Assembly (NCBI GenBank): GCA_947573555.1
Contig: CANPFO010000003.1
Span: 3,216-67,215 of the forward strand
Reading direction: 5' to 3'
Source of the DNA: an uncultured Clostridium sp.
GTDB taxonomy: Bacteria > Bacillota > Clostridia > TANB77 > CAG-508
Length of the DNA stretch: 64,000 nt
Positions within the stretch are counted from its first letter, which is position 1. Every line of letters begins with the position of its first letter. The translations under genes were made by a program, and so were the position numbers. The notes beneath the pieces were generated by a model that worked only from the letters and a program-made list of their open reading frames with translations, searched no databases and was not told the DNA's origin. Below are positions 27,506 through 27,583 of this stretch, piece by piece.

Positions 27506-27583
27506 TTACTTGTGTGTGTGTGTGTGTGTGTGTGTGTGTGTGTGTACTCCCACAAGGATTACATCATTTTTCATCTTTCGCAT
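27506..27583 (-). CDS. possible 25-aa leader ORF containing the (CA)n tract (His-Thr repeat)
   Basis: AGAGGAAAGAAT-ATG, then MRKMKNDVILVGV(HT)5HK-stop. The reading frame beyond the tract depends on repeat number. Confidence 0.2.
   Translation of the reverse strand: MRKMKNDVILVGVHTHTHTHTHTHK
27511..27545. repeat. (TG)17.5 dinucleotide microsatellite
   Basis: 35 uninterrupted nt of TGTG..., read directly, 138 nt upstream of the ATG at 27373. Confidence 0.98.

Follow-up and report, generated by a model that had tools for sequence, protein, structure and literature searches.

Repeat-based switches of gene expression are known mainly from Gram-negative pathogens and mycoplasmas and, to our knowledge, nearly all mapping of phase variation in gut microbes has relied on DNA inversions and methylation. 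Here, we analyzed a 64,000-nt stretch of DNA from an uncultured Clostridium sp. (Bacillota; Clostridia; TANB77; CAG-508), which corresponds to positions 3,216 to 67,215 of contig CANPFO010000003.1 in GenBank assembly GCA_947573555.1 and is referred to as the window throughout. A long CA repeat lies in this window within a short leader open reading frame (ORF), upstream of a gene for a 509-aa pilin-like protein. Judging from the layout of this locus and of its counterparts elsewhere, the tract is probably the variable element of a phase-variable leader-peptide attenuator for the pilin-like gene.

Several described systems resemble this locus in part. In Haemophilus influenzae hif, TA repeats form the spacer of the -35 and -10 hexamers and affect the initiation of transcription. 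The window locus likewise brings together a dinucleotide repeat, a divergent intergenic region, an adjoining surface-appendage gene and putative slippage-based phase variation, whereas its tract lies downstream of the promoter and is predicted to be transcribed and translated. In Clostridioides difficile cwpV, the switch is a recombinase-mediated DNA inversion whose OFF state forms an intrinsic terminator before the surface-protein gene. Both systems would have a phase-variable 5' leader with an OFF-state terminator before a surface gene in a Clostridium-like organism, but the cwpV switch involves neither a repeat tract nor a leader peptide. In attenuation of the Escherichia coli trp type, which is also discussed in PMC3894217, formation of the terminator hairpin depends on where the ribosome stands on a leader ORF; unlike trp, the window locus has neither amino acid sensing nor an alternative antiterminator hairpin, and ribosome position would be set by repeat number.

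In-frame dinucleotide switches have been described in Helicobacter pylori, whose outer-membrane genes oipA, hopZ and sabA carry 5' CT repeats (e.g. PMC10564699). Such genes share with our locus the dinucleotide repeat, slipped-strand mispairing, three frames of which one is ON, and surface-protein targets. However, the window repeat lies in a separate upstream ORF, and its target has an RBS (ribosome-binding site) and an ATG of its own, with a predicted terminator in between.

The pil1 and pil3 loci of Streptococcus gallolyticus have GCAGA repeats in a leader-peptide ORF with a stem-loop terminator downstream (dG -18.7 kcal/mol; Danne et al., 2014, PMC3894217). A leader stop at least 28 nt before this terminator leads to low pilus expression, and a frameshifted leader that stops in or near the hairpin leads to high expression, the ribosome blocking hairpin formation (PMC3894217). 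The window shows the same order as pil1, that is, a predicted promoter, an RBS-bearing leader ORF with the repeat, a putative stem-loop terminator and the RBS of a surface-appendage gene, in a host that is also a Gram-positive gut bacterium. Its short frames likewise end 28 nt or more ahead of the hairpin, and its long frame ends in or near it. Unlike in S. gallolyticus, the unit is the dinucleotide CA instead of the pentanucleotide GCAGA, the lineage belongs to the uncultured low-GC Clostridia instead of Streptococcus, a pilin-like protein with an N-terminal anchor takes the place of the sortase pilus operon as target, and a conserved nucleotide motif precedes the repeat. The CA cassette formed by leader ORF, motif and repeat also occurs fused or translationally coupled to its targets and in phages, and is described here from its sequence. 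Thus, the type of mechanism is already known from S. gallolyticus and in-ORF dinucleotide switches from H. pylori; what would be new is the CA cassette with its motif, its spread and its three read-outs. Our literature searches turned up the S. gallolyticus mechanism, but no description of a CA-repeat cassette with this motif, of its distribution in Clostridia and phages, or of the three read-outs.

The CA tract, its leader ORF and the downstream hairpin

The tract occupies positions 27511-27545 of the window as a perfect period-2 array of 17.5 copies (100% match in Tandem Repeats Finder) and reads (TG)17.5 on the plus strand and (CA)17.5 on the coding (minus) strand. The 35 uninterrupted bases of TG reported in an earlier note on this DNA were thereby confirmed. 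No second dinucleotide run of more than five units is present within the 64 kb, which have a G+C content of 27%, and a 12-mer of TG was seen in none of 100 dinucleotide-preserving shuffles. The tract is located in a 425-bp divergent intergenic region between a plus-strand zinc-ribbon gene (27797-27964, PF13451) and the minus-strand gene for the 509-aa protein (ATG at 27373). Its position upstream of the main ATG agrees with the earlier description, except that the spacing is 137 nt and not 138.

On the minus strand the tract falls inside a leader ORF of 25 codons (27583-27506; 27595-27506 with its RBS), which encodes MRKMKNDVILVGV(HT)5HK* and, in the window allele, ends at a TAA at 27508-27506. 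The RBS AGAGGA (27595-27590) places GAGG 7 nt 5' of the leader ATG at 27583. A small ORF with a good RBS had been proposed around the tract, and here, too, a short ORF with its own RBS was found to enclose the simple-sequence repeat. Directly 5' of the repeat, on the same strand, stands the conserved nucleotide motif (27562-27545), which reads GTAATCCTTGTGGGAGTA in the window and TGaAAGCCTTG.GGCTGTA in the family consensus. A search of Rfam returned only two sub-threshold chance matches.

The best promoter-like site within 27100-28100 is a sigma-70-type promoter on the minus strand at 27638-27610 (TTGAAA at 27638-27633, a 17-nt spacer and TG-n-TATAAT with the -10 hexamer at 27615-27610), which has 11 of 12 matches plus the extended -10 TG. 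The transcription start site predicted from it is at about 27603, upstream of both the leader ORF and the tract. The promoter scan gave no promoter-like site between the hairpin (or the tract) and the main ATG. Therefore, the tract should be transcribed and translated within the 5' leader.

Between the leader ORF and the pilin-like gene lies a putative intrinsic terminator or attenuator (27462-27395, minus strand). It consists of a predicted two-tier hairpin (12 bp + 11 bp, 27462-27404) followed by the U-rich UUGUUGUUU (27403-27395). The hairpin has a dG of -22.7 kcal/mol and a z score of -6.73, and none of 200 shuffles folded as well. A 12-nt direct repeat pair, GTTTAAAATAAA, brackets this element on the minus strand (27475-27387), with copies at 27475-27464 and 27398-27387. 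The target gene with its own RBS spans 27388-25844 on the minus strand; the RBS, AAGGAGGAG (27388-27380), is unpaired in the predicted structure of the leader.

The number of CA units determines where the leader ORF ends. Tracts of 29, 35 and 41 nt share the frame of the window allele, whose TAA lies 43 nt before the hairpin. With one unit less (27, 33, 39 nt and so on), the leader ends in ...QVILEK* at a TAA at 27494-27492, 29 nt before the hairpin, exactly as the earlier note had foreseen. With one unit more (31, 37, 43 nt and so on), a 30-codon extension runs to a TGA at 27420-27418, which falls within the 3' arm region of the hairpin (its 3' half), shortly before the RBS of the pilin-like gene and 44 nt before its ATG; the extension had been anticipated, with its end placed at about 27425, some 50 nt before the ATG. 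Both short-frame stops are thus at least about 28 nt away from the hairpin and the long-frame stop is within it. The long frame stays open exactly up to the hairpin, both in the window and in a diverged strain (L001).

On this basis we propose that transcription starts at the 27638-27610 promoter and that ribosomes load on the 5'-proximal leader ORF and translate through (CA)n. Replication slippage would add or remove CA units at high frequency, for which the allele polymorphism described below is the basis, and the number of units would pick one of the three post-tract frames. In two of them (29, 35 and 41 nt; 27, 33 and 39 nt), the ribosome would be released at TAA 27508 or TAA 27494, the hairpin and the U-run would form, and transcription would terminate before the gene, giving an OFF or low state. 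In the third (31, 37 and 43 nt), the ribosome would read 30 further codons to the TGA and cover the arms of the hairpin, so that termination would fail and RNA polymerase would enter the gene, which would be translated from its own unpaired RBS (ON). The 35-nt window allele is predicted to be OFF, and the phenotypic effect would be a random and heritable ON/OFF switch in expression of the pilin-like protein. The earlier idea of a slipped-strand switch that alters the leader end, leader translation and RNA structure is supported by the allele lengths, by whole-unit variation, by the position of the hairpin and by the example of S. gallolyticus pil1.

The locus is present in mouse-gut metagenomes, and all 34 runs with the locus are represented as k=31 contigs, which break inside the 35-nt tract. 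In every mouse-gut run, read depth over the tract is overwhelmed by host (TG)n microsatellites. Nevertheless, at least 25 bases of TG follow beyond both unique flanks in contigs from 12 independent public runs, and several independent assemblies of the European Nucleotide Archive (ENA) cross the tract with the same flanks. Therefore, the tract is not an artefact of a single assembly or a chimera with host DNA.

Tract length is not fixed among strains. It is 23 nt in L001, 33 nt in a natural allele (L002, ENA ERZ15043491) that uses the ...QVILEK* frame, 35 nt in the window, 41 nt in L004, whose flanks are identical to those of the window, and at least 43 nt in L003, whose contig begins inside the tract. 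Repeat number thus varies between samples and shifts the leader frame. The earlier note had held that a tract unsupported by reads, or a fixed length together with a transcription start downstream of the tract, would speak against a switch; the 12 runs and the ENA assemblies support the tract, and its length differs among assemblies of the same locus.

In the 33-nt allele, 77 bp between the GTTTAAAATAAA repeats are deleted, whereby the terminator is lost and the long leader frame comes into frame with the main ORF. Judged by its reading frames, such a deletion would convert the terminator architecture into a fused one, or into a constitutively transcribed gene, and would show the ease with which these architectures interconvert.

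Public contigs that carry the neighbouring zinc-ribbon gene all stop at the tract or just past it. For loci L001-L010, which were collected through this gene, contigs end either at the CA/TG tract or in a paralogous pilin N-terminus, and the GTDB representative metagenome-assembled genome (MAG) of the species lacks the locus. Assembly of short reads systematically drops or breaks such CA cassettes, which are therefore under-represented in MAGs. In addition, other contigs of the mouse-gut runs X5, X14 and X23 share the tract and the motif (window 27531-27563) and then diverge (e.g. ...TTGCAAGGCTTTCG, with the canonical motif); therefore, further cassettes exist elsewhere in the genome or community.

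The CA cassette family and its three proposed read-outs

We identified 14 long dinucleotide tracts in 578 kb of DNA from 79 loci that encode relatives of the pilin-like protein, all of them on the coding strand and upstream of a family member. These tracts, (AC)8-14, (AG)11-25 and (TA)10, belong to several other MAG species. Each is preceded by GAAAGCCTTG.GGCTGTA and lies in a short ORF with its own RBS, and after every one of them two frames stop within a few codons and the third is long. The shorter pattern CCTTG-N5-GTA was present in 11 of the 12 cassettes found through protein homology alone. At L036 (with three tandem paralogues), L018, L040, L044 and L091, the long frame enters a pilin-like ORF that lacks an RBS and an ATG of its own. 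These five loci share the in-ORF design of H. pylori exactly and, by their reading frames, would represent classical in-ORF translational phase variation.

To define the family more broadly we used the pattern CCTTG-N5-GTA-(CA)6.5 or longer, which matched 47 viral contigs and at least 120 metagenome contigs, versus two viral matches each for the AG and AT versions. Altogether, at least 195 instances of the cassette in at least 118 unique contexts were obtained from gut Clostridia MAGs, metagenomes and phage contigs, with tracts of 14-49 nt among the matches listed; the class, frame and polymorphism counts given below were also taken among these matches. Positions left free by the pattern are conserved in about 120 metagenome matches, so the matches belong to a single family of elements. 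The order of RBS, ATG, 8-20 codons, motif and repeat is kept in 73 of 94 unique cassettes. The cassette, which consists of an RBS, a short ORF, AAGCCTTG.GGCTGTA and then (CA)n, appears to be conserved and portable.

Repeat number is also hypervariable in the family at large. When contexts with identical 50+50-nt flanks on independent contigs were compared (n = 17), tract length varied in 16 of them and 69 of 81 pairs differed, by whole units only; the sole invariant group had the shortest tract (17 nt). The motif is fixed at synonymous positions (AGC-CTT-G.G-GCT-GTA, with GCT over GCA at about 90:1) while one non-synonymous base varies, which argues for a role of the motif at the nucleotide level. 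It forms TGTACA together with the first repeat unit, and often a Shine-Dalgarno (SD)-like GAGG or GGAG is located 5 nt before the tract. Its role may be such as that of a small hairpin, an SD-like element or a TGTACA junction, or it may have an effect on slippage.

Based on the fate of the long frame, three read-out classes could be distinguished among the 94 unique contexts with enough flank. The long frame continues into an ORF of at least 100 aa in the fused class (30 contexts). In the coupled class (32 contexts) its stop overlaps the next start codon, with TAATG in 19 cases, ATGA in 6 and a position 5 nt further in 7. In the gap class (25 contexts, the window included) it ends before a gene with its own RBS. 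A repeat within the target's own frame, as in H. pylori oipA or Neisseria opa, is therefore found in 30 of the 94 cassettes, at L036 (in all three copies) and the other four loci named above, and in the L002 deletion allele. The window itself does not have this arrangement, because its long frame stops at the TGA, 44 nt short of the ATG, and does not share the frame of the gene. With regard to the state of the switch, the long frame is occupied in 30 of the 94 cassettes, which matches the one-third share that a three-state switch would show if it drifted freely.

In the coupled class, the downstream SD sequence is predicted to be paired, with a median probability of 1.00 versus 0.39 in 126 ordinary genes of the same contigs (p = 7e-8). 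If these structures form, they would be the design expected for termination-reinitiation coupling. Coupled cassettes are operon-internal and follow the stop codon of an upstream gene at a median distance of 19 nt; in phages this upstream gene encodes a tail or minor-tail protein. The gap class shows the features of the window locus. A hairpin with a U-run was present in all 15 loci examined, with unrelated sequences. In 13 of these loci the long frame ends within or beside the hairpin, and in the other two it ends just after it. Most short-frame stops are well upstream of the hairpin (L162 and L262 being exceptions), and a promoter with at least 10 of 12 matches is located upstream of the small ORF in 9 of the 15 loci, against a background of 4%.

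Targets of the cassette form 49 clusters. They include pilin-like proteins, giant membrane-anchored proteins, HsdS specificity subunits and an Acyl_transf_3 enzyme, as well as proteins with BspA-LRR, MucBP or SdrD_B surface domains, Gp10_C baseplate proteins and tail-fibre proteins. The surface proteins, HsdS, the acyltransferase and the phage tail genes among them are typical contingency genes, which speaks for a switch. At three loci (L145, 865-1407; L202, 1487-2095; L210, 5765-6808), cassettes are fused in frame to specificity subunits (Methylase_S) of type I restriction-modification (R-M) systems or to an Acyl_transf_3 acyltransferase, and such fusions are possible phasevarion-like and surface-modification switches in gut Firmicutes. 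A further contig (L108, from IMG/VR, minus strand) has two cassettes, at 9736-9761 and 11222-11247, after a tail gene (phrog_372), each of them before a gene of about 125 aa; from this arrangement the pair looks like independently switchable alternative tail-tip modules.

Taking the family as a whole, we lean towards the view that the cassette is a hitherto undescribed portable module, spread through gut Clostridia and phages, which would turn repeat number into the delivery or non-delivery of a ribosome. The same module would have been wired to in-frame fusion, to termination-reinitiation at an SD-sequestering hairpin and to leader anti-termination. Its targets would include phage tail-tip genes as well as surface proteins and the specificity subunits of R-M systems. 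The invariant motif would then act in cis, adjusting either slippage or polymerase or ribosome timing.

Objections and alternative explanations

Several points weigh against the attenuator proposed for the window locus. Because the gene comes with its own strong RBS, any read-through of the terminator would give expression in every frame. The hairpin is AU-rich, with few G-C pairs, and was missed by the terminator scan. Length polymorphism at the locus was seen between samples and not within one population, and 4 of 4 resolved alleles sit in short frames, with no natural ON allele there. A shuffle test of whether the long frame reaches the hairpin was weak and gave modest support, with per-locus p values of 0.13-0.99 and a product of about 0.005 over some 10 independent loci; the shuffle null is weak because the spacers are A-rich. 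A metatranscriptome (X1, k=31 contigs) was uninformative on expression, as its depth profile mirrors that of DNA and the body of the gene is present in multiple copies. Finally, Firmicutes often do not couple translation to transcription, and the mechanism could be weakened by this.

Some of these points would also be expected if the window locus were a decayed relic of an in-frame fusion such as L036, now interrupted by stops and provided with a new RBS and ATG, in which the tract mutates without affecting expression and the gene is constitutive or otherwise controlled. We consider this unlikely, even though the leader peptide is homologous to the N-terminal extension of fused relatives (...NKDS...LLSFC.LK), being broken here by a TGA and a TAA, the target RBS is strong and unpaired, and none of the four alleles is in the ON frame. 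A relic does not account for a strong hairpin with a U-run that has been retained between the only good promoter and the gene, nor for a long frame that remains open precisely to this hairpin in the window and in L001. Moreover, the design with a separate RBS and a terminator recurs in 14 other loci whose terminators are unrelated, and it fits the mechanism proven in S. gallolyticus (PMC3894217).

A role of (CA)n at the level of RNA or translation, such as a protein-binding site, a translational enhancer or a site of 2-nt ribosome slippage that feeds each frame, with length polymorphism as a by-product, seems improbable to us. It would explain why only (AN)n units are used and always on the coding strand, with CA strongly preferred (47 viral matches versus 2 and 2). 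The conserved motif, which in many copies has an SD-like sequence 5 nt ahead of the tract, could promote ribosome pausing or frameshifting, and re-pairing of tRNA after a 2-nt slip would be perfect. However, it is the DNA that varies in length by whole units between otherwise identical sequences, and the three frames are each filled in about one third of cases, as a switch at the DNA level predicts. Rho-dependent polarity via the CA tract was rejected by reasoning, since (CA)n has no YC dimers.

It is very doubtful that the tract acts through DNA structure or promoter geometry, i.e., by altering spacing or forming Z-DNA and thereby affecting promoter activity for either the pilin-like or the divergent zinc-ribbon gene. 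Promoter geometry, Z-DNA and the comparison with hif had been put forward in the earlier note, and the setting in a 425-bp divergent intergenic region, together with the ability of alternating purine-pyrimidine tracts to form Z-DNA, is in its favor. However, no promoter-like site spans the tract, which neither lies between -35 and -10 hexamers nor overlaps them; the best minus-strand promoter lies 65 nt upstream of the tract, 5' of the small ORF, and the plus-strand promoter region is more than 100 bp away. Throughout the family, tracts are always inside an ORF and in one orientation to the target, often within operons where there is no nearby promoter. The hif analogy thus could not be upheld, and nothing in the analysis supports a role of Z-DNA.

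A mis-assembly or a chimera with microsatellite DNA of the mouse host, which the swamping of tract depth by host (TG)n in every mouse-gut run and the breaks in k=31 contigs might suggest, has a negligible probability in view of the bacterial flanks that enter TG in 12 runs from many studies, of the several independent ENA assemblies that span the tract, and of homologous cassettes in hundreds of contigs.

The target protein family and implications

The 509-aa target has a pilin-like N-terminal helix, KGITLVALVITIIILLILAG, followed by a C-terminal part of about 430 aa with an unassigned fold, which ends in GFRVVLVG. PF07963 (N_methyl motif) gave E = 0.006 and 16.5 bits for this protein, below the 21.2-bit cut-off, and was matched weakly by 34 of 46 family members; a profile compared with the N-termini of geopilin and PilE1 yielded E = 7e-4 to 0.03. 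The helix (GITLVALV) has no Glu at +5. The earlier description of the protein as a lectin or adhesin is unproven: neither the target nor its 45 closest relatives matched a lectin or formylglycine-generating enzyme (FGE)-sulfatase domain in Pfam or NCBIfam, and the similarity of the C-terminal part to FGE/SUMF is marginal (E = 0.47 with the SUMF2 structure). PF03781 matches two more distant pilin-like cassette targets with E = 4e-6. The AlphaFold (AF2) model of the target, with a predicted local distance difference test score (pLDDT) of 39, was unusable for fold comparison.

The target family is very large (7,489 matches), with its nearest non-paralogous members about 60% identical to the target, and the exact protein is not on record in the databases. 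The closest proteins (P0001-P0003) were rejected as representatives of the same locus, as they are paralogues at other loci without the tract. A scan of reference genomes revealed 79 family loci in uncultured Clostridium or Clostridia MAGs, which came from the guts of mouse, rabbit, human and other hosts; a single genome often has many paralogues. In DNA runs, the gene body (26010-27340) has 3-6 times the depth of its flanks, and proteins that are 90-97% identical occur at other loci with different 5' ends or upstream regions (L013, and L011 and L012, which flank a helix-turn-helix (HTH) gene). These two observations suggest several near-identical paralogues that recombine, and the target probably belongs to a multi-copy, recombining surface-protein family. 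A possible inversion of the HTH gene between L011 and L012 was rejected, as the two are the same locus viewed from both sides and there is no inverton.

In several family members (L018, L022, L038, L040 and L044, of MAG min17_bin87), a +1 shift at GT(G/T)CGGAGAAAATGG is needed to join the helix to the protein body. The site lies about 60-100 nt after the GITLIAL helix and is not a homopolymer, and random sequencing errors would not be expected to recur there. The cause could be a programmed shift, pseudogenes or an error that is systematic in long reads.

As for the meaning of these findings, the window locus and its approximately 200 relatives suggest that a common and easily recognised CA-repeat cassette exists in uncultured gut Clostridia and their phages. 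This cassette appears to make expression random for an acyltransferase, for surface and phage tail proteins and for the specificity subunits of restriction systems. If this is true, metagenomes would offer a simple sequence signature for contingency genes, and the attenuator of S. gallolyticus would turn from a curiosity of a single genus into a general design. Phages may likewise switch their receptor-binding modules by repeat slippage, and the tail targets would imply a repeat-driven switching of host range.

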